Notes under the pieces: generated by a model
The model's database searches: none
What the model was told of the DNA's origin: nothing
The model's input: the letters and a program-made list of their open reading frames with translations, nothing else
Origin: an uncultured Gemmatimonadaceae bacterium
GTDB lineage: Bacteria; Gemmatimonadota; Gemmatimonadetes; Gemmatimonadales; Gemmatimonadaceae
NCBI GenBank assembly: GCA_963716745.1
Contig: OY970320.1
Coordinates: 2,048,001 to 2,112,000, forward strand
DNA length: 64,000 bases
Direction of reading: 5' to 3'
Program-made: the position numbers and the translations under genes
In this document: piece by piece, positions 11,435-61,540 of the stretch
How the letters are laid out: each line of letters starts with the position of its first letter
Position numbering within the stretch: the stretch's first letter is position 1

Positions 11435-11521
11435 ACTGCAGACTGAGACGTTAGACCTAGACGTTAGAATGCGACTACTCGCCGCATTCTAAGTCTAAGT
11501 CTATAGTCTCAGTCTGTAGTT
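11435..11521. repeat. Palindromic element built of AGAC(G)TT/AGACT units, ending GTAGTT
   Basis: ACTGCAGACTGAGAC pairs with GTCTCAGTCTGTAGT; inner TTAGAATGCG/CGCATTCTAA; related to 30479-30514. Confidence 0.75.
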
Positions 11522-12843
11522 CAGCATCCCCCACCGTCGCTCCCGATCGTGTACTGCACGCTCGTCCAACGCGAATCGACACCGGCAGCGAAGCCGTCGA
11601 TACCGAACACGGCGGTCGAGGCGACGAATTGATTCTGCGTCGCCTGCATTCCGCCGGGTGGACCGTAGTTGCGCGTGATCACCGCCGTGCCATCGACGCA
11701 GAGCGTCGCCGACGTCGTGCCGATCTTGCGCAGCCGGTACGTATGGAACGCGGTGCCCGTGAGCGCGAACGTCGCGCCCCGATTGGTCCATTTGCCGCTT
11801 CCGTTGTTGTAGGTCGCGAAGGAGACTCTATCGCTCGCGATCCCCACGAACTCCTGTCTGCGGCCGCTGCCCTGTGGCTCGGCAAAGCCGAATACCGCTT
11901 GGATCGTGCCCGCGGAGGCATTGACCACGCGGAGCCTCGCGTCCATGACCGCGGATCCGGTTCCCAGCGAATCGTGTCGTGAGTAATAGAGGCTGGTATT
12001 CGCGGTGCCCGCCTGCAGCCTCAGTTCGGTGCCCGCCGTGAAGGCCGCGGTGCCGAGCGTCGGATCGCCGGTGGACGCGAACGTTCCCCAGCGCGGTTTG
12101 CCGTTGAGATCGGGCAGAGAATCCTGCGTGCCATCGTAGATCCGGAGCCAGGTCGTCTCATGCGGCGCCGGCCACGATGCGCTCACCATGAGCGTGAAGA
12201 AGAAGGCGTGCACCGTGTCGGTGACGCCGGGATTCCAGTTGCTGGTCTTGAAGAGCCATACGATGCGATTCGTCGTATCCTTGCCCGCGGCACCGCCCGT
12301 GTAGGCTGACGGACGATTCGGATAGAAGAAATACTTCTGCCCCGCCGCGGTGAAACTGCCGGTGCCCGACTGATTGCTCACGCTCACGGCGCAGCCGACG
12401 CACGGACTCGGCCGCGAGACGTTCGGTGCGACGGTGAAGAACGCGAACACCCCCGACGTATCCGGCGCCGCCACCTCCGGATAGTTGGAACCGATCGCGA
12501 ACGCCTGGCGATTGCGAAGTTCCACGTGCGTGAACCATGTGCGGCTGCCCGCGGGGCCGACGCCGACCACATTGTGCAAACTGTCCACGACGCCGAGCAC
12601 GTCGATCGTCACGCCCTGCTGGCCATAGATCGCGGGACTGATCTTCGTGTCCGTCAGGCCCGCAATGCTGCCGGAGAGCGGCACGAACGTCGTCGTTATC
12701 GTGTTGCCGCTGATCATGCCGTTGACGAAGCCGAGTACGGGTGTCGACGGCGTCGTTATTGGAGCGGAAGGCGCCGGCTCGCTGCACGCCGCGGCGAGCA
12801 GGACGAGGGCAGCCGTTGGTATCAGTCTTGTGTGAGAAGTCAT
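11521..12843 (-). CDS. Surface lipoprotein: unnamed N-terminal domain plus beta-rich (LamG-like?) C-terminal domain; last gene of RiPP-like locus 1
   Basis: Lipobox LLAAAC; N-domain aligns by eye with 55338-55632. Confidence 0.7.
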   Translation of the reverse strand: MTSHTRLIPTAALVLLAAACSEPAPSAPITTPSTPVLGFVNGMISGNTITTTFVPLSGSIAGLTDTKISPAIYGQQGVTIDVLGVVDSLHNVVGVGPAGSRTWFTHVELRNRQAFAIGSNYPEVAAPDTSGVFAFFTVAPNVSRPSPCVGCAVSVSNQSGTGSFTAAGQKYFFYPNRPSAYTGGAAGKDTTNRIVWLFKTSNWNPGVTDTVHAFFFTLMVSASWPAPHETTWLRIYDGTQDSLPDLNGKPRWGTFASTGDPTLGTAAFTAGTELRLQAGTANTSLYYSRHDSLGTGSAVMDARLRVVNASAGTIQAVFGFAEPQGSGRRQEFVGIASDRVSFATYNNGSGKWTNRGATFALTGTAFHTYRLRKIGTTSATLCVDGTAVITRNYGPPGGMQATQNQFVASTAVFGIDGFAAGVDSRWTSVQYTIGSDGGGC

Positions 12844-12929
12844 ACGAAGATACCTGTGCGAGAAAGTGTGCTGCTCTTCGGTCAATGTATAACGGCCAAA
12901 TGCGCGCCGCATCAGCGACGTGCATCACA

Positions 12930-13844
12930 CTACGGGAACAGGATCGCCGGCTCGCGTTCCTGCGCGGCGGTCCCAGGGAACAGCACTTGGATCGAGTCCG
13001 GCGTCAACACGAGCGCCTTCATCGAACTGTTCGCCGCACCCATGGCCGCCGCGAAGATGCAGTACGACGCGTTGCAGCTCGCGGGGCCGCTCGCGGTGAG
13101 CGAGTCCGGGATCGCGTTCATGGGGTTCGTGCCGGTCGCGTCGATCCGGCGGAGGATCAGCTCCGGAACGGGCGCGATGTAGTAGATCTTCGTGCCATCC
13201 GCCGACCATGTCGGCGAGAACGCGCCGCCGCCTTCGTTCGTGATGCGCGTGGGCGTCCCGCCGCCGCTCGCCACGACGTACACCTGCGATGTTCCGGTTC
13301 CCACGCCCGTGTACGCGATGGTGTGGCCCATCGGATTCCACGCGGGCGCACTCACGGGGCTGTACACCGGGTCGCCGGTCGCGAGCATCTGCGCAGAATC
13401 CATCGTCCCCTGGTCCAGCGCCGGCGCGCGGATCAGCCACACCCTCGGCACGCCCGTGCGCGTGCTCACATAGGCGATGGAATCGCCGCTCGGGCTCAGC
13501 GCCGGCGTGTAGTCGAATGCGCCGCTATGCACGACGCGGTGCGGGGTCGTGATGTCGAGGTCGGCAATGTAGATCTGCGGGTAGCCGTCGCGCTCGCTCG
13601 TGAACACGATGCGCGATGCCGCACTGTTGGGATCGTAATTGTTCGATCCGGCGGTGAGCACGACCACGGAGTCGTTCCGGAATCGCACGAGACTCGTGAA
13701 GCCACCCGTGTCGGCCACATACACGAACGCCGGCAATGTCCCGGGCGGCGGCCCACCGCCACCATCGGTGCCCGTCGAGTTGCTGCAGGCGAGCGCGCCG
13801 ATCGCGAGGGCGGCCGCAAGAATGCGCACGGCGTCAGCTCGCAT
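12930..13844 (-). CDS. TolB-like (PD40 repeat) beta-propeller lipoprotein
   Basis: Lipobox GALAC; IVFTSERDGYPQIY, PALSPSGDSIAYVSTRTG, PTWSADGTKIYY. Confidence 0.85.
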   Translation of the reverse strand: MRADAVRILAAALAIGALACSNSTGTDGGGGPPPGTLPAFVYVADTGGFTSLVRFRNDSVVVLTAGSNNYDPNSAASRIVFTSERDGYPQIYIADLDITTPHRVVHSGAFDYTPALSPSGDSIAYVSTRTGVPRVWLIRAPALDQGTMDSAQMLATGDPVYSPVSAPAWNPMGHTIAYTGVGTGTSQVYVVASGGGTPTRITNEGGGAFSPTWSADGTKIYYIAPVPELILRRIDATGTNPMNAIPDSLTASGPASCNASYCIFAAAMGAANSSMKALVLTPDSIQVLFPGTAAQEREPAILFP

Positions 13845-14103
13845 CGGCCACCAACAATCCGGCATCGTTGAGCGCCGCGATCAGCGCGCGTGTCTCTTCG
13901 CGCGCCACGGGCTCGGTCACGGTGTACTCCGCCGCGAGTGTCTGCACGATCTCATCCTCCACGCGCCCCTCGAGCAGCAGCGCCCAGATGCGCGTACCGG
14001 TCGCGTTCAGCGAATGGTAACGATTGGTGCGGAGATTCAACAACACCGCACCCTCGGCGAGCGTCGCGGCGAGCGCGTCGGGTGTCGCGCGCCATCGGGT
14101 CAT
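13834..14103 (-). CDS. PqqD-family RiPP recognition element (89 aa)
   Basis: EGAVLLNLRTNRYHSLNATGTRIWALL..LAAEY..LNDAGLL; ATGA overlap with the reconstructed kinase stop. Confidence 0.9.
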   Translation of the reverse strand: MTRWRATPDALAATLAEGAVLLNLRTNRYHSLNATGTRIWALLLEGRVEDEIVQTLAAEYTVTEPVAREETRALIAALNDAGLLVADAS

Positions 14104-14886
14104 GACAGCGCACCCGCGAGCGTGCCGGCGATCGCGTGCAACTGCCGGGCGGTGTGAGCTGAGACGGAACGCCGGGGCGTCCGTTACGAGCGCCCGCAGC
14201 GTCTCGAGGTGCGCCTCCGAGTGGCCGTCCGGCATCATCACCCAGGTGGATTGTCGTACGAGCTGCAGCAGTGCTTCCGCGGCCGCCATGGGCAGCAGCT
14301 CGTCGCGGTCGCCGCGCTCCAGGAAGACGATCGCCGCGACGCGCGCGCGCTGCACGACGGGAAATCGCATCGGTACACGGTCGCGCTCATCGCGGAATCC
14401 CGGAGGCGGCGCGACGCCGGTGAGTTCGGGGAATTCTGGGGCGAGCGCACGGCTTACGGCGAGCGGTTCGCGCCACGCGTGCGCGACGACTCCCGTCGGT
14501 GTGCGCTCGACGATCACGCCATCGTCGCCCATCAGTCTCCAGCCGGCGCGTACGAGCGCGTAGGCGAGCGTGGACTTTCCCGTTCCGTTCCCGCCGGCGA
14601 GGATCCAGGCGCGGCCCTTCGGATCCGCCACCGCCGCGGCGTGCACGTGGAAGCGGCCGAGGGCGCGCAGGCGCACGATCGCGCCCACGCGTGCGAGGAA
14701 CTGGCGCTCGGGGGTGGCGGTGGTGGCGTAGCGATCGCCGCGTTGCAGGCGGCCACGGCGCACGGTGAGCGTGCCGCCGTCGGGCATCAGCTTGAGCACC
14801 GAGCCGGCTGCGTCGGTGAAAGCATCGATCGGACCGGCGGTCCAGGCGAACCCGGGCACGGGCTCCGCCTGTTGCGGCGTCAGCAG
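14100..14886 (-). CDS. HPr-kinase-like P-loop kinase (start uncertain; indel near 14158)
   Basis: HVHAAAV, ILAGGNGTGKST (Walker A), LMGDDGVI; shifted frame ends HTARQLHAIAGTLAGALS-TGA. Confidence 0.8.
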
Positions 14887-15104
14887 CCGAACTTCTGTCC
14901 GCTTACTCCACAGGTGATCTGCAGCGCGAACGCGACGCCGGCGGGGCCGAAGAAATGCTTCGTCAGCACCGTGAGCGATTCGTGGGTCGCGAGCTGCGGA
15001 GTCTCCCAACGGAGACGCGCCGCGCCCGATGTGTCGGGAGCGGGATCGCCGGAGCCGAGCGGAATGTTCGAACCGTCGAGGGGAGAATTGGCCATCGAGC
15101 GCAT
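14880..15104 (-). CDS. Putative RiPP precursor peptide 1 (alternative start 15095)
   Basis: Leader motif WETPQLATHESLTVLTK then HFFGPAGVAFALQITCGVSGQKFGC; directly upstream of kinase and PqqD. Confidence 0.75.
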   Translation of the reverse strand: MRSMANSPLDGSNIPLGSGDPAPDTSGAARLRWETPQLATHESLTVLTKHFFGPAGVAFALQITCGVSGQKFGC

Positions 15105-53489: not shown

Positions 53490-54657
53490 TGTCCGTCCCC
53501 GAGTCCCGAGTCCCGAGTCCCGCATACTTCGTCATCACCGCCCCCGGTTTAGAGGCGATCACCGCCGCCGAGATGACCGCACTGGGTCTGGAGCCCGGGG
53601 CCATCGAGCCCGGCGGCATCAGCTTCGACGGACCGGCGGGCGCGCTCTACCGCGCGAACCTCCATTCTGCGCACCGCGACGCGCGTGATCGCGCGCGTCG
53701 GTGAGTTCGAGGCGCGCCACTTCGCCGATCTCGAGCGCCATGCCAAGGCGCAGCCGTGGTCACGGTGGCTGAGCGCCGCACGCCCCGTGCGGCTGCGCGT
53801 CACGTGCAAGAAGTCGAAGCTCTACCACAGCGGCGCCGTCGCGGAGCGCATCACGACCGCGATCGCGCATGCGCTGGGCCGCGCGCCCGAGACGGCGGGC
53901 GCGAGCGCCGGCGATGATGACGACAGCGGCGATGCGCAGCTCGTGATCGTGCGGCTCCTGCACGATCATTGCACGGTGAGCATGGACAGTTCGGGCGCAC
54001 TGCTGCATCGGCGCGGGTACCGGCTCGCCACGGCGAAGGCGCCGATGCGCGAGACGCTGGCCGCGGCGCTGTTGGCGGCGAGCGGGTGGCCAGGCGACGC
54101 GCCGTTGGTTGATCCGATGTGCGGCTCAGGGACGATCGCGATCGAGGCGGCCATGCTCGCCCGGCGGATGGCGCCGGGCGCCCGCCGTGATTTCGCGTTC
54201 ATGCATTGGCCGGCGTTCGACGCGGCGCTGTGGAAGCGCATGCTCGACAAGGCGCGCGACCGCGAACTCCCGCGCGCGTCCGCTCCCATTCTCGCGTCCG
54301 ATCGCGATGCCGGAGCCATCGCGGCGGCAGAGGCCAACGCCGAGCGTGCGGGCGTTGCCAGCGACGTGCAGATCACGCGCACGGCGCTTTCGGGGATCGT
54401 GCCGCCGGCCTCGGCGCGAGGGTGGCTGATCACCAATCCGCCCTATGGCGTGCGCGTGGGCGACCGCAAGGCGCTGCGCGACCTGTACGCGCAACTCGGG
54501 AATGTCGCGCGGCGATCGTGCGCCGGTTGGACGCATCGCCCTGCTCTCGGCCAGCGTGGAGCTCGAGCGTCAGTTGCAGCTGCCGATGACCGTCGCCGTG
54601 AAGACGCGGAACGGCGGCGTACCAGTGCGGATCGTGACAGGGCAGATACCGGCCTGA
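53489..54657 (+). CDS. THUMP-domain RNA methyltransferase (RlmL N-terminal/YpsC-like), indels
   Basis: APGLE, DSSG-LLHRRGYR, APMRETLAA, DPMCGSGTI-IE, TNPPYG-R. Confidence 0.88.
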
Positions 54658-54690
54658 TCCCTTCCCACAACAGCCGGTCGATTTGTCCTA

Positions 54691-54719
54691 TAGACGTGCG
54701 CGACCGGTCGTTGTATGCT
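54691..54719 (+). promoter_or_regulatory. Candidate sigma70 promoter of RiPP-like locus 2 with a palindrome in the spacer
   Basis: TAGACG-17 nt-TATGCT; CGACCGGTCG at 54701-54710. Confidence 0.45.
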
Positions 54720-54765
54720 CCCTATCCCAACCGGTCAAAAGAACCCGTCCTGCCGGTCAAAAAGC

Positions 54766-54948
54766 ATGCCCTTCGTAGAAGGCACTCCTCCGAGCGAGCA
54801 GTCTCCCGCCGCATCACCGGCGTCGCCGAAGCGCGCATGGACTCCGCCGCGCTGCGAGGAATTGCCGCCGCTCACTGACCTCACCATGCAGCAGGGTTCC
54901 GGCATTCACGGCGGTGGGGGCGGAGGCGGCACGGTCTTTCCGTTCTAG
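54766..54948 (+). CDS. Putative RiPP precursor peptide 2 (60 aa)
   Basis: WTPPRCEELPPLTDLTM then QQGSGIHGGGGGGGTVFPF; first ORF of the rSAM-PqqD-kinase operon. Confidence 0.75.
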   Translation: MPFVEGTPPSEQSPAASPASPKRAWTPPRCEELPPLTDLTMQQGSGIHGGGGGGGTVFPF

Positions 54949-54978
54949 CGGGCTTCGTTCACGATCACGGCAGGCACT

Positions 54979-57840
54979 ATGACGCACGCGATCCGCCCGG
55001 CACGTCCTGCCCTGAGATTCCTGGTGCCGCTCGCCGGCGTCGCGGCGCTCTTGTACGGTTGCCAGAGATTCGTTGCCCACCGCAGCGAGCAAGCCGCCGG
55101 TGTATCTGGCGCAGGCGGTGCAGTGCACGGTGAGCGTGGCGCAGCAGAGCATGAGCTGCAGTTCGGGCGAGGCGGCGATCGCTTCGTCGCCGGCGCCGGG
55201 CGCTCGAGGCGGCGCGACGCGAGCATGGCGCGCAGCCAGGGGCGTCCGGTCAGCGAGCGCCGCGCTCGTCGGCCAGTCCGCATAAGTTCGTCACGGTCAC
55301 GTCGCAGAATTTCTTTCACGATGTGGCGGGCGACCGGGTCCTCGCCGACGTGAAGGTGCAGAACCTCACCACCGTCGCGATGGGCTCGAAGGACGGCAGC
55401 ACGTACGATGGCACCGGCGTGAACGTGTTCTTCGATCCGCCGCCCACGGCGCCGGTGACGATCGATAATCCCACCGGCACCAACGGCACGTTCCTCGTCT
55501 CGGGCACGACGTACTTCCAGTATCCGCAGCTCGTGCCCGCCAACGGAACCACCGCGCTTCAGTCGTGGGTATTCGGACTCCACGGCCAGGCGTCGTTCGA
55601 TTTCTTCGTGTATCGTGAGCGCGGCGATGCCGACGGATCCGGACACGGTCGTCATCCCGCCGCACGCATTCCCGGGCATCAGTTCCGGATTCGATCAGAT
55701 CTGCGCGATCCGCGCCGGCAGTCAGGCCTATTGCTGGGGAAACGATTCGCTCGGCCAGTTGGGCGACGGGCGCAGTTCGGACCAGTCCGGTGCCGGTCGC
55801 TGCGCTCGGCGGCCACATTTACAGCTCACTCTCCGCGGGTCCGACGCACGGCTGCGGCATTGAGCAGAGCACCCTCGCAGGATTCTGCTGGGGCTACGAC
55901 TCGCTCGGCGCGCTGGGCGATGGCGGCGCGACGACGCAGAGCGCGCCCACCGCCGTGGCCGGGCAGCTCAGTGGCTCTGCGATCGGCGCCGGCGCGAATC
56001 ACAGCTGCGCGATCGAGTCGGGAACGAACAAGGCATACTGCTGGGGCGACAACGCGCATGGTCAGGTGGGCAAGGGATCGTTGGGCGGGAACGTGACGTC
56101 GCCGACCGTCGTTGTCGGCGGGCACCTGTTCGTCACGGTCGTCTCGGGGCACGATCATTCGTGCGCGCTCACCGCCGCCGGCGCCGCATGGTGCTGGGGC
56201 GCGAACGCCAACATGCAGCTTGGCAACAACGGATTCGCCGATGCGTCGACACCGGTGGCCGTCGGCGGCGGCCATACATGGAAGCAGCTCACCGCGGGCG
56301 GAAACCATGCATGCGGCATTGACAACAGCGACGTCGCATGGTGTTGGGGTTCGGATGCGAGCGGCGAGCTCGGCGATGGGAACTTCGCCGACGAGGGACT
56401 CCCGGTCGCGGTCGACCCGACGGACCTCGGCACGGCGAAGATGATCAGCGCCGGCTCGGACTTCACGTGCGCCGTGGACAAGACGGCGAACGCGAATGGG
56501 TGGTGCTGGGGCGACGGCACTAGCGGGCAACTTGGCGACAACAGCCTTTTCGCGGTACCCAATCCGCAGCTCGTGGACGGCGGTCTCAAGTGGAACTCGA
56601 TCTCCGGCGGTGAGCGGCATACGTGCGGCATTGATAACACGTCGCATGGCTATTGCTGGGGCGCGGGCGACGCTGGTCAGATCGGCGACGGAGTGCCCGG
56701 ATCGACGCAAGCGCCGGGTACGCCCGTGAGCGGCGATACGTACACTGCGCTCGCGGCGGGCGGCGACTTCGCGTGTGGCATGAGCGTCGCGAAGCCGGGA
56801 ACCGGCTGGTGCTGGGGCAGCGCGCAGAAGAGCGCGCTTGGCAACGGGTTCCTCATGACGCAGAGCGCGCCGCTTGGCGTGCTGGGCTTCCATCAATTCA
56901 CTCAGCTCGCGACCGGTCAGAATCACAGCTGCGGGATCGATGTCACGGGCGCCGCATGGTGCTGGGGAGAGAATGACGTGCGACGAACTCGGCACCGGCG
57001 ACGAGACATCGCACAGCATCCCGGCGAAGGTCAGCGGCGGGCATCCTCTATTCGCAGATCAGCGCGATGTTCGTGAGACACCTGTGCGCGGGCCGACCGG
57101 AGCGGGCGACCAACCGACATACTGCTGGGGCAGCAACGGTTTCGGCGAGATCGGCGACGGCACGACGACGAACGCTCCATCGCCGACCGCGCCGGCTGGT
57201 CCGGTAACGACGTTCGCTGCGATCTCGGCCGGGCTGCAGCATACCTGCGCCGTCCAGACCGCCGGTGCCGTCTACTGCTGGGGCGACAATTCGAGCGGCC
57301 AGCTTGGCGACGGTACCAATACTCCGCAACTCCAACCGCAATCTCGTCCCGGGCTTCAGCGGCATCCGCGATCGGCGCCGGATTCTTGTTCACATGCGCG
57401 ACCGAGAGCGGCGGCAGGCCACCATCTCTGGTGCTGGGGCAGCAACAGCAACGGACAACTCGGGATCAACAGCTTCGGCGGTACCAGGACCTCGCCGACG
57501 GTGAGTCGGAGCGCGCGTTCATTCTCGCAGGTCACACTGGGCGCATTCCACGCGTGCGCGTTGGAGCAAGGCACCGGCGAATGCCTATTGCTGGGGATCC
57601 AACAACAAGGGACAGTTGGGCAGTCCGGAAGCTTCAATCAGCAAGACCGTACCCACGCTCGTTGCCGGTGCGGTCACGAGCTTCGTGAGGATCTCGGCGG
57701 GTCGGCAGGATCCCGACCGGATCGCCCATCACCTGCGCCTCGACCGCCGCCGGCGCCTCCTATTGCTGGGGTTCGACGTACGGGAATTCGCCCACGCTGG
57801 TCACGCCGCCATGAGCGCCGCCACGATCCTCGCGCGCTAG
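54979..57840 (+). CDS. Large lipoprotein: unnamed N-domain plus many RCC1/BLIP-II-like repeats (several indels)
   Basis: LLYGC lipobox; repeated H-CA/CG---G-A-CWG-N--GQLGDG in ORFs 55615, 55790, 56874 and later. Confidence 0.85.
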
Positions 57841-57846
57841 CTGCAT

Positions 57847-58844
57847 ATGCTCCTTGGCTTCGCGGTCACGCGTCACTGTAATCTTCGTTGTCCCCATTGT
57901 ATTCGGGACGACGTCGTGACGGTCGGCGAACTCAGCGCCGCGCTCATCGGCCGCATCACCGGCGAGGCGAAGGCGCTCTTCGGCGAAGTGAGAGTCAGTC
58001 TCACCGGCGGCGAACCCCTCATCCATCGCGACTTCGCCGGCATCGTCGACGGCACTGCGCGAACGCGCGGTGCCCTGGACGATCGTGACGAACGGCTGGC
58101 ACATTGCGCGCGCGCTTCCGGTGCTCGAGATCGCACCCGCCCGCCGCGGTGCGGCTCTCGCTCTCCGGCGCGAACGAAGCTGTGCATGACGCCGAGCGTG
58201 GCGACGGCTCGTTCCGCCGCGTGCTCTTGGCCGCCGCGATCCTCACGAGCCGCCGGATCCCCTTCTCGCTCGGGATCCTCATCGATCGCCGCGACCGCAG
58301 CGATCTGCGCGAGGCCGCGGATCTCGCGGAGTCGCTCGGCGCGATGAGCCTCCAGGTGCTGTTCGCGCAACCGGTGCCCGCGAGCGCCGCACGCGGCTCC
58401 GATCTCGCACCGCGCGACTGGCAGCAGGTGGTGCGCGAGGTGCGCGCATTGAGCACGGAGTCGCACCGGTGCACTGCCGTCTCGCTCGATTTCGGTGCGC
58501 CGCCCTTTCCGGGTGAAGCGCCGCTCACCTGCGACACGTTCACGCACCGCCGGATCTATGTGAATCACAACGGCGAGCTCTGTCTGTGCTGCCAGCTCTC
58601 GGAGTACGGCGAGATCCCGACCGACGTCGTCGCCGATCTGAACGCCGTGCCGCTCGCGGTCGCGTATGGCGCGTACACGCGTCAACTCGCGGAATTGCGC
58701 CGCGCCGCCGAGCCCGAAGCAGGCGATGCGCTCGCCAAGTTCCCGTGCCTTCGGTGCGCGCGGACGTCGGGCAAACTCGATTGGCTCGCGCGGTTCCCGG
58801 AGAGCCCGTGGCACGATGCCCCCGGCGTGCCCGCCCATGCGTAA
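57847..58844 (+). CDS. Radical SAM enzyme with SPASM/twitch-like C-terminus (indels near 58074-58140)
   Basis: CNLRCPHC (CxxxCxxC), LTGGEP, IVTNG, SLSGA..HD-ERG-GSF; C-x13-G-x4-C and distal CLRC. Confidence 0.92.
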
Positions 58845-59959
58845 ACTCGCGTTCGCTCTGTTGCTCCCGTTCCTGCTCGCCTCGTCGTGCGACATTCCGG
58901 GGGTCACCGACACGTCGCCGATGATCGATGTCACCGGGCGCACTGAGCGCGGGACCATAGTGGTGCTGCGCCTGCTCGTCGCCGGCTCGCCCGTCGCCGG
59001 CGCTGCATTCTCGGTCCCTCCGGACGGACACGCGTTCGTCCTGAACGAAGACAGCCTCTTCTTGATACAGCCGGGACCCCTCACGATCGATGCGCGCGGG
59101 CTTCTGGGTGGGGACAGCGTGCACGCCACACGCACGATCACGATCTCCGCGGCACCCACGATCGTGTTCGACGGTCTGGTCGCCGGGAATCGCGACATCT
59201 ACTCGGTAGGGCCTCAATGGCAGTGCGCTCGTGCGCCTCACCACCGATCCGGGCGATGATCGCATGCCCACCGCGCTCGGCGCCACGGTGTACTTCATCA
59301 GTTCGCGCAGCGGTACCGCCGAGCTGTTCACCGTTCCACTCGCAGGCGGCGCGGACGCGCCATTGGCCGCGAGCACGCTCGCGGAGAGTCAGCCGGCCGT
59401 CGCGCCGAGTGGTTCGCATCTCGCGTACGTGGGCACGGATTCGTTCCCGCACATCTATGTCGCCGGCCTCAATGGCGGTGCCGTTACTCGATTCGCGGCG
59501 GCCGACGCAGGATTCTCCGGAGCGCTGGAAGCCAGTCCCACCTGGTCGCCCGCAGGCGATCACATCGCCTACACGACCACGCGTGATGGCGCCGCCGGGA
59601 TCTATACCGGCGCGCTCAACGGCGCCGCGGGAAGCGCGACGCAGCTCGTGAGCGGCGCGCACGGGTACGCGAATGTCGACCCGGCGTGGAATCCGAACGG
59701 ACTCAGCGTCGCCTTCGCATCGAATCGTGACGGTCCAACGGATCTCTACTTGATCACCATCGCGTCGGGTACGGTGACGCGCCTGACGACGCGCGGAAAC
59801 GTGGGACAGCCCGCATGGCTCGCCGACGGCCGGCTGATGTTCACCGAATTCATCTCCGGCGCGAACGGGCTGCGCTGGCTCGACCCCGCGGACACGAGCG
59901 TGATCCACGTCATTCCCACCGGCCCGGGATCGGCCGAGCACGCGTCGGCGGTACCATGA
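58837..59959 (+). CDS. TolB-like (PD40) lipoprotein (indel near 59210)
   Basis: LLASSC lipobox; PTWSPAGDHIAYTTTRDG, PAWNPNG-SVAFASNRDG-TDLY. Confidence 0.85.
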
Positions 59960-60243
59960 GCGCGAGCCCGATACGGCCGCTCCGGCCCGCCGAGAGTGTG
60001 CTCGTCGCGCATCTCGACGGTGAATCGGTGCTGCTCGATCTCGAGAGCAAGCACTACTATCGCTTGAACGAGAGCGGCTCGGCGATCTGGCGCGCGGTTG
60101 AGTCCGGCGCGGAGCCGCACGCGATCGCCGACGCGCTGGTGTCCGCGTTCAATGTCTCGGAACCCGAGGCGCGCGCGGCCGTCGATGGGCTGCTCGCGGA
60201 TCTGAGCGAGAAAGGATTGCTCGTGCCCAAGGCCGCCGTATGA
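59956..60243 (+). CDS. PqqD-family RiPP recognition element (95 aa)
   Basis: LDGESVLLDLESKHYYRLNESGSAIW..L---F-V..LL-DL-EKGLL; ATGA overlaps on both sides. Confidence 0.92.
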   Translation: MSASPIRPLRPAESVLVAHLDGESVLLDLESKHYYRLNESGSAIWRAVESGAEPHAIADALVSAFNVSEPEARAAVDGLLADLSEKGLLVPKAAV

Positions 60244-61190
60244 GCCGCCTGCTCTCGGCGACACCGATCGCACTGGAGGCGGACCGCTTCACGGCATCGC
60301 TGATGCGCGAGATGCTCCCCGCTGTGCGCGAAACCGGTGGTCCAGCGATCGCGGGCCGAGTGCGCGCGCTGCGTTCGGCGGCGGACGCTCCCTCCTCGCC
60401 TGAGCGGGCGCCGACGCTGCGCGTGAGCGGCGTCGCGTTCTGGATCGATGCGCCGCCATCGAGCCGCGTCGCATTTCGAAATGTCAGCGGCTCGGTGCAT
60501 GGATCGATCGACCGCAACTCATCGCGCGCGGAGCTGCGCGTATCGCCGCGCATTGCGGATGACGAGCGCATGGATCCGGGAATCGCGTTCGGAGTGGTGG
60601 TGTCACTCCTGGCGGCGCGCTTGGGCCACGCGCTCGTGCACGCCGCCGGCGTGATCGCACCAAGCGGACGCGCCTGGTTGCTGGTTGGCGACTCCCACTC
60701 AGGAAAGTCGACGACCACTGCGACGCTCATCGCTGGCGGATGGGACTATCTCGGCGATGACTCGGTGGTCCTCTCGCTGGCGCGCGGCGACGCGCCCGGT
60801 GCGCGCGTGCATGTCGAAGGCTGGCGCGTGCCGATCCGCCTCGACCACGGCTCGACGGCCGGTGCGGCGCGCGCCGATCGCGTCGAGGTCGACCCGCACG
60901 CGCTCGGCGGCGGACGGTGGCGCGCATCGGCGCCGCTGGGCGGATTGCTCTTCCCGCGCGTGGATCGCGCGGCGCGCACCACGCTCGCGCCGATCGCGCG
61001 CGCCGATGCCTACGCCGCGCTCGTGCGTCAGAGTCCGTGGCTGCTCGCCGATCCTGTGAGTGCGCCGCGCGTGAGCGACCTGCTCTCGGCGGCGAGCGGC
61101 CATTCCGCCGCGCGCCTCACGCTGGGCGCCGATTGCTATGCGGACGCCGCGCGGATGACCGAGGTGCTCGGCGCGCTGACGGGCCTCTAG
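60240..61190 (+). CDS. HPr-kinase-like P-loop kinase
   Basis: LVHAAGV, LLVGDSHSGKST, YLGDDSVV, LVRQSPW; paralog of 14100-14886 (LVRQSTW). Confidence 0.85.
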   Translation: MSRLLSATPIALEADRFTASLMREMLPAVRETGGPAIAGRVRALRSAADAPSSPERAPTLRVSGVAFWIDAPPSSRVAFRNVSGSVHGSIDRNSSRAELRVSPRIADDERMDPGIAFGVVVSLLAARLGHALVHAAGVIAPSGRAWLLVGDSHSGKSTTTATLIAGGWDYLGDDSVVLSLARGDAPGARVHVEGWRVPIRLDHGSTAGAARADRVEVDPHALGGGRWRASAPLGGLLFPRVDRAARTTLAPIARADAYAALVRQSPWLLADPVSAPRVSDLLSAASGHSAARLTLGADCYADAARMTEVLGALTGL

Positions 61191-61540
61191 TCCGGCAGAA
61201 GCATCGAGAGCACCGTGCTCACGATGCTGATCACGATCGAGCCGATCAGCGCCGGCCCGAATCCGGCGACGTGGAAGCCGAGGCCCAGCGAGCTTGAAAG
61301 CGCACTGGTGAGCATCAGCATCAGAGCGTTGATGACGAGCAGGAAGAGGCCGAGCGAGAGCACGACCACGGGCAGGCTGAGAAGGGTGAGGATGGGGCGG
61401 ACGAAGCCGTTCACGATGCCGAACACGAGCGCCACGCCGGCGAGCGCCAGCACGCTGCCGTCCGTCGAGATGCCGGTCACCCAGCGCGACGCGACCCAGA
61501 GCGCCGCCATGGTGATGAGGATACGAATGACGAGCTTCAT
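61187..61540 (-). CDS. YvlD-like membrane protein (Phage_holin_4_2 family)
   Basis: GIVNGFVRPIL--L-LP---LSLGLF-LVINA. Confidence 0.85.
   Translation of the reverse strand: MKLVIRILITMAALWVASRWVTGISTDGSVLALAGVALVFGIVNGFVRPILTLLSLPVVVLSLGLFLLVINALMLMLTSALSSSLGLGFHVAGFGPALIGSIVISIVSTVLSMLLPD

Follow-up and report, generated by a model that had tools for sequence, protein, structure and literature searches.

The subject of this analysis is a 60-codon open reading frame (ORF) at positions 54766-54948 of the window, that is, of the whole 64,000-nucleotide stretch of Gemmatimonadaceae DNA that was analysed (G000:C1:2048001-2112000, where G000 is the source genome, a single contig of 3.29 Mb with 67% G+C). 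The ORF is a genuine gene under purifying selection. With a probability of roughly 0.65, it encodes the precursor (A) peptide of a pathway of the type that produces peptides made on the ribosome and modified after translation (RiPPs), one that is widespread in Gemmatimonadota and whose product acts with beta-propeller lipoproteins. The general marks of a RiPP precursor are present: the leader is conserved, genes for a RiPP recognition element (RRE) and for enzymes adjoin it, and peptide and enzymes are inherited together. An earlier interpretation of the same letters, referred to here as the sequence-only reading, had proposed a translated, conserved RiPP-type precursor, and this proposal is supported. 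The verdict is a new RiPP-type system. The gene, its parts and the genes that follow it are listed below; SAM stands for S-adenosylmethionine.

54656-54765, plus strand: conserved upstream region with CCGGTC repeats at 54673, 54701/54703, 54730 and 54752; candidate promoter or operator.
54766-54948, plus strand: precursor peptide gene (precursor 2), ATG at 54766, TAG at 54946-54948, 60 amino acids (aa): MPFVEGTPPSEQSPAASPASPKRAWTPPRCEELPPLTDLTMQQGSGIHGGGGGGGTVFPF
54766-54888, plus strand: predicted leader, residues 1-41, with a Pro/Ser/Ala-rich N-terminus, KR and then W25-T-P-P28-R-C30...L33-P34-P-L36-T37-D-L39-T40-M41.
54889-54945, plus strand: predicted core, residues 42-60, QQGSGIHGGGGGGGTVFPF, a divergent member of a Gly-rich ...[S/G]TVF core family.
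54979-57878, plus strand: partner lipoprotein gene(s) with a signal peptide, a lipobox (…AALLYGC), a Cys pair, an Ig-like module and RCC1 repeats; split by insertions or deletions (indels).
57847-58844, plus strand: radical SAM maturase; CNLRCPHC spans residues 11-18, and the C-terminus is a Cys-rich auxiliary-cluster region; spread over three frames by two extra bases near 58049 and 58131.
58837-59959, plus strand: PD40/TolB-like beta-propeller lipoprotein (PF07676), frameshifted; tblastn against the G001 orthologue gives E 3e-108 in two pieces.
59956-60243, plus strand: discrete PqqD-family RRE (B1-like), PF05402 at 64.3 bits against a cut-off of 23.4.
60240-61190, plus strand: HprK-related kinase with the P-loop GDSHSGKST; TIGR04352 at E 1.1e-9, below its cut-off.

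The evidence for a gene comes from nucleotide comparison with the congener genome G004 and with contigs from three independent soil runs (X1, X2 and X3). Over 54601-61291, G004 and G000 are 83.9% identical (6765 aligned columns, 927 mismatches, 161 gap positions). The G004 peptide is 100% identical, and each of the six differences among the 183 nucleotides (nt) is third-position and synonymous. The 17 codons between an upstream ATG (54715) and 54766 carry two differences, both non-synonymous. Because these upstream codons differ non-synonymously and the 60 codons only synonymously, the start is placed at 54766 and not at 54715. Contigs of X2 and X3 span 54600-54976 and 54721-54988, respectively, each with one difference and no gaps. 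Among 41 distinct family genes, synonymous codons are used for the STVF core ending and for the Leu after the leader motif LTxLT (Ser AGC/AGT/TCG, Leu CTN/TTR). A chance ORF, or a non-coding regulatory element 5' of the lipoprotein gene, would fit the shortness of the ORF, the absence of a family model match, the conservation of the upstream 110 nt as well and the inverted repeat across the start codon. This explanation is extremely improbable, however, given that change relative to G004 is solely synonymous, that amino acids are kept across the phylum despite codon turnover and that at least 1034 homologues have been called as proteins.

The peptide belongs to a large family. With the G000 peptide as the query, convincing matches were obtained in five of 60 related genomes: G004 (100% identity), G001 (63%), G051 (49%) and G037 (56%), the last two from another family of the order, and G002, where identity is 100% over residues 1-46 and is followed by a frameshift within Gly codons. 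Of 401 genomes sampled from the phylum, 31 contain the peptide according to a four-sequence profile, and several of these hold two to four copies; by family label, the counts are 6/93 (f1), 21/166 (f2), 1/70 (f7), 2/4 (f8) and 0 in the others. A codon-degenerate leader pattern, W-x2-P-x4-L-P-[K/R...]-L-T-[D/E]-L-T, was searched in one genome per species over 185,579 species and returned 89 stretches. Among the 80 loci listed, 75 have names beginning with Gemmatimonad or Longimicrobi, four are called 'bacterium' without further name, and one is a Terriglobia metagenome-assembled genome (MAG) whose ORF is unlike the family. A 29-sequence profile run against a collection of 5.8 billion proteins matches at least 1034 proteins of 26-130 aa at E<=1e-3, which have no Pfam domain and bear 'hypothetical protein' as their sole name. 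Pfam and NCBIfam models gave no meaningful match to the 29 family peptides, the one weak hit being 'rhodolasso' (E 0.0023).

In the 29 aligned peptides, W25, P28, L36 and T37 are invariant, while L33, P34, L39 and T40 are at least 90% conserved. Composition was counted in the best 120 proteins of the collection search. The Trp, the LP pair, LT[D/E/Q]LT and a Leu as the next residue are each found in 120/120, and the second residue after Pro is V in 66, L in 34, I in 19 and F in one, which gives the leader consensus WxxPx(V/L/I)xxLPxLT(D/E)LTL. Cores in this set have 17-24 residues (mode 20) and 40% Gly; 92 end in STVF, 102 have Phe as the last residue, and TV[F/I] is present in 112. An acidic residue occurs in 76/120 cores, at about position 11 as judged by eye from the printed cores, and Cys occurs in 4/120; the G000 core contains neither. 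The G000 peptide is a divergent member and ends in GTVFPF. Within the family of precursor 2 the core is conserved, not hypervariable. Consequently, the signature of a conserved leader with a variable core, on which the sequence-only reading had relied, holds only between this family and that of precursor 1, a second peptide of the window. The same reading had described the precursor-2 core as free of acidic residues and unrelated to core 1, and the sequence agrees on both counts. Cores with two Cys (...DCGVGGSTCF, ...IPCGSSTVCP) were seen in Longimicrobium at loci L098, L100, L101, L122, L128, L130, L148, L165 and L172, and their modification may differ from that of the Cys-free majority.

The genes next to the peptide form an operon with the order radical SAM, PD40, PqqD, (B2) and kinase, where B2 is a cysteine protease of the lasso type. 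An orthologue of the radical SAM enzyme (E<=1e-40) is found in 28 of the 401 genomes of the phylum sample. Peptide and enzyme are both present in 27 genomes, the enzyme alone in one (G031, 39% identical), the peptide alone in four and neither in 369; the counts span 18-19 genera, and related genomes are not independent. Three of the four peptide-alone genomes have weak matches at E>6e-4, and in the fourth, G150, the peptide lies on a 10.7 kb contig. The pattern set gives 80 distinct peptides. On the same strand, 40 of them are followed first by the radical SAM gene (starting no more than 300 nt on), 17 by a large lipoprotein gene, one by PqqD and one by another gene, and in nine the lipoprotein is fused in frame. 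No next gene was found for 12, a class that includes a fusion missed by tblastn, a duplicate cut by the locus end, one peptide with a 146 nt flank and the Terriglobia match. An intact radical SAM gene follows the peptide immediately in G001 and G037.

A further set of 42 peptides comprises the window and the loci from both searches of relatives (41 of the precursor-2 type plus precursor 1). Within 10 kb of these, radical SAM genes are found for 24, PD40 for 22, PqqD for 19, kinase for 15 and B2 for nine; many of the peptides without such genes are at contig ends or are satellite copies. The sequence-only reading had staked the precursor on an association with PqqD/kinase neighbourhoods. This condition did not refute it, since 19 of the 42 peptides have PqqD within 10 kb. 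The tightest partner is the radical SAM enzyme (27 genomes with both), which that reading did not contain.

The leader resembles the sequences by which RREs recognise their substrates. According to excerpts of PMC13381572, discrete lasso RREs recognise [Y/W]xxPx[L/V/I/F/A], and WxxP is typical of kinase-bearing paeninodin-like clusters. Lasso leaders are described with YxxPxL at -17 to -12 and with Thr -2 as the recognition element for leader removal (PMC10368454, in part), and W/Y/LxxP/L/I is given as common to the FusE, McjB, PqqD and StsC groups of RREs (PMC12710340, in part). The peptide has W25, P28 and T40, the Trp and this Thr being 15 residues apart, and in G000 Cys stands at the hydrophobic position. 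Since the distance from W to the second Thr is 15 in both peptides of the window, as from Y(-17) to T(-2) in lasso leaders, the junction is predicted after M41 in precursor 2 and after K in precursor 1. The leader/core cut suggested earlier, with the core starting QQGSG, agrees with such a Thr(-2)-type junction. It had also been suggested that LTxLT could define the family. This did not stand: the informative part is the known RRE recognition sequence, [W/Y]xxPx(L/V/I), and a Thr 15 residues on.

The best NCBIfam models for the discrete PqqD protein are lasso PqqD chaperones, at 51.1 and 47.4 bits (below the cut-offs of 70 and 80). Complex prediction for PqqD (16-row alignment) with the precursor (29 rows) yielded a score of 0.44, compared with 0.01 for the best of three controls; at least 95% of the contacts are common to the runs, and the pLDDT of the partner is at least 53. 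The mark applied is reached by 116/157 solved complexes and 2/215 mismatched pairs, and scores up to 0.60 include 18/157 solved complexes and both passing mismatches. The prediction supports leader binding weakly, and it may reflect mere likeness, because RRE-leader complexes have already been solved.

The radical SAM enzyme would act on the presented core. Its intact orthologues have 331-332 aa (G004, G001), and no RRE is fused to it, because CX3CX2C already lies at residues 11-18. Among 17 orthologues, C228-x13-G242-x4-C247(C248) and C300-x2-C303 are invariant. The seven-Cys consensus of SPASM domains is CX9-15GX4C ... CX2CX5CX3C ... C. A twitch or partial SPASM region is suggested, because the first half of this motif is present and the second half only as CX2C. 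The best NCBIfam model is the mycofactocin maturase TIGR03962 (E 6.9e-18, 64.9 bits against a cut-off of 265); StsB reaches E 1.2e-15 (57 bits against 625), the PqqE model TIGR02109 46.8 bits against 381, ScmE 57.1 bits against 400 and GeoRSP_rSAM 59 bits against 400. Among PDB sequences, 8wm2, an Fe-S radical SAM protein, matches best, followed by PqqE 6c8v (E 6.8e-8); the literature consulted on 8wm2 brought up unrelated papers only. From such family and PDB matches, the chemistry of the enzyme cannot be read. Sactipeptides and ranthipeptides, which are thioether classes, need a core Cys, and the G000 core has none.

An HprK-like protein also occurs together with a PqqD-like protein and a radical SAM/SPASM enzyme in the SynChlorMet (ScmC/D/E/F) and GeoRSP systems, and weak matches to the models of these systems, including geo_PqqD, were obtained. 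Scores remain far from the SynChlorMet equivalog levels (ScmC 27 bits against 125, ScmD 16.2 against 100), and both systems differ from the present one in precursor and in taxa. To our knowledge, both are uncharacterised.

The pathways of pyrroloquinoline quinone (PQQ; PqqA/D/E) and mycofactocin (MftA/B/C) are similar in another way, as in them, too, a small peptide goes with a discrete PqqD-family RRE and with a radical SAM enzyme that lacks a fused RRE and carries a C-terminal auxiliary-cluster domain. PqqE/PqqD and MftC/MftB each pair a radical SAM enzyme without a fused RRE with a separate PqqD-type protein, and mycofactocin precursors (MftA) end in Gly-Val-Tyr. It is conceivable that the present system likewise makes a cofactor: the C-terminal Val-Phe would be modified and a small moiety excised, perhaps for use by the lipoproteins, and there would be no secreted peptide. 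Such an account would explain the RRE-less enzyme with its separate PqqD, the mycofactocin maturase as best NCBIfam match with PqqE second among PDB matches, the 102/120 family peptides that end in Phe and the 112/120 that hold TV[FI], and an operon without an exporter. It is nevertheless unlikely. The mycofactocin and PqqE scores (64.9 against 265 and 46.8 against 381 bits) are far below the cut-offs, and in G000, G001 and others the peptide extends past VF (TVFPF, TVFPH, STVIP), while VF is internal in the fusions described below. In addition, the kinase and the lasso B2 protease have no place in PQQ/mycofactocin schemes, and the family here differs from both systems in its kinase and B2, in its Gly-rich core and in a Val-Phe that is not always C-terminal. 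MftD, MftE and MftF were absent among operon genes in the general family scans, in which no search was aimed at them.

A close likeness is to paeninodin-like lasso clusters, which have split B1/B2 and an HprK-like kinase. These share with the present family the WxxPx(L/V/I) leader with Thr 15 residues after Trp, the discrete PqqD-type RRE, the HprK-like kinase (PMC13381572, in part) and the transglutaminase-like B2 protease that many clusters of the present family contain. In the system described here, B2 lies between PqqD and kinase in G051 and eight other analysed loci, and the G051 protein scores 59 bits on PF13471 (cut-off 26) and 54.4 bits on NF033537 (cut-off 33). An ordinary lasso peptide precursor could therefore be considered on the strength of the leader motif and its spacing, a PqqD closest to lasso B1 models, a B2 that passes the NCBIfam lasso B2 model, the kinase known from paeninodin-like clusters (PMC13381572, in part) and the weak 'rhodolasso' match of one of 29 peptides. 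What decides against it is the lasso cyclase. No such enzyme (Asn-synthase, PF00733) was found on the cluster contigs of G051, G132, G084 and G147. In the whole genome of G084, which is 99% complete, the only cyclase match is a 63-residue fragment of the 354-position model, and the copies of the Asn-synthase domain in G000 lie 66-87 kb from the peptide. Because there is no lasso cyclase, the product is not expected to be a lasso peptide. The place beside the precursor is occupied by the radical SAM gene, the Gly-rich core lacks a ring-forming acidic residue at positions 7-9 (in G000 it has no Asp or Glu at all), and PD40 and large beta-propeller lipoproteins accompany the family in a different host phylum, Gemmatimonadota. 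Overall, a lasso precursor is very unlikely.

A lasso-like set of genes without a cyclase has a precedent. The system of the linear polyphosphorylated peptides (LPP; Popov et al., Nat Commun 2026, PMC13381572, available in excerpts) has an RRE, an HprK-like kinase and a lasso-like leader without a cyclase, and its product is linear and phosphorylated on a core Ser. The discrete RRE and HprK-like kinase are present here as well. In contrast, the SpI-type leader peptidase, the NTP transferase and the MsbA-like exporter of LPP are not among the operon genes that were scanned, the LPP leader YxxPxVLxHQxIxFETxxS is not matched by the family leader, and LPP has no radical SAM enzyme. Discrete lasso-type RREs beside radical SAM enzymes were noted by RRE-Finder (PMC7470986, in part). 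Thus, the recognition motif, B1/B2, the HprK-like kinase, a lasso-like RRE beside a radical SAM enzyme, and an RRE with a kinase but without a cyclase are known parts. Their combination, the precursor family and the lipoprotein fusions have no description that could be found in the full-text literature (open-access papers and bioRxiv).

The link to beta-propeller lipoproteins was not foreseen by the sequence-only reading, which was incomplete at this point. A large lipoprotein follows many of the peptide copies that are not neighbours of the radical SAM gene; it has a signal peptide and lipobox Cys, a Cys pair, an Ig-like module and a beta-propeller. By Pfam, RCC1 repeats are recognised only in the G000 copies, and the large G051 lipoprotein has no Pfam match. 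The G000 module at 55323-55610 matches the fused protein P0124 in its residues 138-231, at 41% identity over 96 residues (E 6e-15). In three MAGs, the peptide and the lipoprotein are fused in frame: G325 has four tandem copies, G143 has three and a third MAG has two. The order in the fusions is the leader, ...LLSPIGGGGGIGGSTVF, GLLLAAGLLFGxGAC (a hydrophobic region with the lipobox Cys) and a further ~760-790 residues. In the protein collection, 11 such long forms pass E<=1e-5, some of them with 786-826 aa. G325 (L057 2376-12540) and G143 (L058) carry arrays of three to four paralogues, each an ~800 aa beta-propeller protein, and all four detected G325 copies are fused and stand directly 5' of the radical SAM operon. 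Since every copy detected in G325 and G143 is fused, a protein-bound role fits these genomes better than a free natural product. Within the tandem fused paralogues, the Gly-rich STVF segment is near-identical and the flanking parts are variable.

These fusions raise the alternative that the peptide is a cytoplasmic pre-sequence of the lipoproteins, namely a modifiable extension of the signal peptide that controls or marks export and has become a separate gene in most lineages, that of G000 among them. Besides the fusions in G325, G143 and the third MAG and their position before the radical SAM operon in G325, two observations point in this direction: 17 unfused peptides of the pattern set directly precede this lipoprotein family, and the G000 downstream gene has the family's N-terminal module. 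On the other hand, fusions are rare (11 long against 1034 short proteins) and confined to one group of close Gemmatimonadales, and the next gene is the radical SAM gene, not the lipoprotein gene, in 40/80. There is also no sign of readthrough. The G000 peptide and the next ORF share a frame, but the same frame occurs in 6/20 unfused pairs, which is the chance rate, and readthrough of the stop codon into the lipoprotein was rejected on this basis. Taken as a general account of the family, the pre-sequence is quite unlikely. A further reading is put forward only tentatively and is itself doubtful: the lasso leader toolkit (WxxP, B1, B2, kinase) may have been recombined with an RRE-less radical SAM enzyme into a new RiPP class, whose Gly-rich ...STVF core would be tied in function to beta-propeller lipoproteins, and in some Gemmatimonadales the natural substrate may be the cytoplasmic signal-peptide extension of the lipoprotein itself. 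If true, this would be RiPP machinery that modifies the pre-sequence of a secreted lipoprotein, for which the open-access papers and bioRxiv searched hold no description.

For the preferred reading, a precursor peptide of a RiPP-type pathway, the following course can be proposed. The discrete PqqD would bind the leader via W25-x-x-P28-x-hydrophobic, in the manner of lasso B1 and PqqD/MftB-type RREs, and would present the Gly-rich core to the RRE-less radical SAM enzyme with its twitch or partial-SPASM region. The HprK-like kinase may phosphorylate a hydroxyl residue, the most conserved candidate being the Thr (or Ser-Thr) in the [S]TVF terminus. The lasso-type B2 cysteine protease would cut off the leader after the residue that follows T40. 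The product would then act with periplasmic beta-propeller lipoproteins, represented by the PD40 protein of the operon and the large lipoprotein 3' of many copies. Leader binding, the order of steps, how and where the peptide is modified and what the lipoproteins do are what we infer from gene content and motifs.

Several observations weigh against this reading. The system is known here from genes alone, and none of the NCBIfam matches for PqqD, the kinase or the radical SAM enzyme reaches its curated cut-off. The G000 leader departs from the best 120 proteins at two otherwise invariant sites, with Cys for V/L/I/F at motif position 6 and Met for Leu after LTDLT. In G000, lipoprotein genes stand between the peptide and the radical SAM gene, which are 2.9 kb apart, and the operon has no B2; B2 is also absent from the operons of G001 and G004. 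No exporter is conserved in the operon. Every detected copy in G325 and G143 is fused to an ~800 aa lipoprotein. Finally, the radical SAM and PD40 genes of G000 are frameshifted, and the indel at 58049 is outside the listed independent contigs, so that decay in this strain is possible.

With the reading of a RiPP-type precursor, a large unnamed precursor family (at least 1034 proteins) can be defined precisely by its genomic setting, within a soil phylum that has been little studied. The module of lasso leader, B1, B2 and kinase would be able to serve an enzyme other than a lasso cyclase, which extends the LPP result. It is possible that clusters of this kind are recorded as lasso peptides in automated surveys. 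In one survey, 29 MAGs of marine Gemmatimonadota are credited with 'lasso peptide' clusters, given without detail (PMC11316326, in part). Two testable questions are raised: how a twitch-type radical SAM enzyme acts on a Gly-rich Val-Phe core, and whether RiPP enzymes act on exported proteins.

The second peptide of the window, precursor 1, provided the comparison from which the sequence-only reading had started. Its locus contains the following features.

12930-13865, minus strand: PD40 lipoprotein of locus 1.
13834-14880, minus strand: HprK-like kinase and PqqD of locus 1 in a single open frame.
14880-15104, minus strand: precursor 1, 74 aa, 40 kb from precursor 2 and of a different core family.

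The two peptides align without gaps as had been claimed, the 16-mers matching at W, P, L, T, L and T. The pattern search recommended at that stage was run: translated in six frames, the whole 3.29 Mb genome has two matches to W..P.{7}LT.LT and no more, one in each of these short ORFs; the motif was derived from the same two peptides. LT.LT alone occurs 101 times in the same translation. BLASTP of precursor 1 against precursor 2 gave no alignment at E<=100, and six identities in some ungapped 16-residue window were reached by 855/2000 shuffles of both peptides. As evidence by itself, the pairwise leader match was dropped, as it is at chance level in both BLASTP and shuffles. The four-sequence precursor-2 profile also misses precursor 1 (one match in G000). 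The resemblance nevertheless rises above chance, because the matched positions are the family-invariant ones and because both peptides adjoin paralogous PqqD/HprK-like kinase genes (the two PqqD proteins are 35% identical, E 8e-15). Beyond the recognition motif, precursors 1 and 2 have nothing in common.

Homologues of precursor 1 are restricted to the genus and occur in G002, G004 and G003; the G003 homologue is 75% identical over residues 27-74. Weak 'matches' in G048 and G051 were rejected as long open frames without the motif. Locus 1 has no radical SAM gene and, with its kinase-PqqD frame and PD40 lipoprotein, appears by analogy to be closer to the logic of LPP. For the 462-aa protein of this locus (11521-12912, minus strand), Pfam, NCBIfam and PDB all gave nothing, and its only Atlas match is a 'hypothetical' cluster of Gemmatimonadota.

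The state of the assembly affects how the operon is to be read. In G000, the radical SAM, PD40 and RCC1 genes, as well as an upstream RlmL-like methyltransferase gene (53685-54657), are split by single-base indels. Relative to G004, the radical SAM gene has extra bases at 58049 and 58131. Bases absent in the independent contigs are those at 55066, 55614, 55778, 55979, 57339, 57363, 57410, 58129/58131 and 59208; the contigs of X1 and X2 lack the extra base at 58129/58131, and that of X1 also lacks base 59208. Agreement with G004 is found at 55066, 57363, 58131, ~57339-57341, 57408-57410 and 59208-59212. Because the independent contigs and G004 lack the extra bases, the assembly carries indel errors, and comparison of these sequences indicates that the operon is probably intact in the organism. 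Frequent single-base indels also fit the 89.8% completeness of the one-contig genome. Overlaps like those of frameshifted genes are seen in many further pairs of same-strand ORFs of the window.

The region upstream of the peptide (54656-54765) is identical to G004 at 98/110 nt, compared with 84% in the surroundings. Five CCGGTC-containing sites lie within 90 nt (54673-54759) 5' of the peptide start and form a possible operator; window-wide, the motif has 43 matches against 44 expected and is not enriched. A sigma-70-like site was sought upstream of the peptide and none was found. A search for RNA holders of the stretch listed none. The inverted repeat ATGCCCTTCGTAGAAGGCAC at 54766-54785 overlaps the start codon and was scored as a terminator-like hairpin on the minus strand.

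Further genes of these types occur elsewhere. A third, stand-alone PqqD-domain gene (99 aa; L188 1471-1770, G000:C1 ~147364-147663, minus strand) lies 3' of a lipoprotein gene. G000 and five congeners each have one orphan B2-like gene, on another contig or ~860 kb away; that of G000 (L185 1432-1827, G000:C1 ~2965698-2966093) reaches 71.5 bits on NF033537 and lies 3' of a GGDEF-type membrane protein gene. A search for a third precursor (WxxP/YxxP) within ~7 kb of the third PqqD gene or near the orphan B2 gave no candidate. The congener G005 has the orphan B2, and neither peptide was found there with these queries. Three clustered genes with Asn-synthase domains are located at G000:C1 2015943-2036083, 12-32 kb before the window, and adjoin neither peptide locus. 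At L113 and L108 in Longimicrobium, the ORF 3' of the peptide resembles a KaiB-type protein (MSRHRFTLYVAGDTARSQ...), as judged by eye. In the window itself, a 4-TMS holin family gene (PF04020, E 1e-28) at 61187-61540 on the minus strand converges with the end of the kinase gene.

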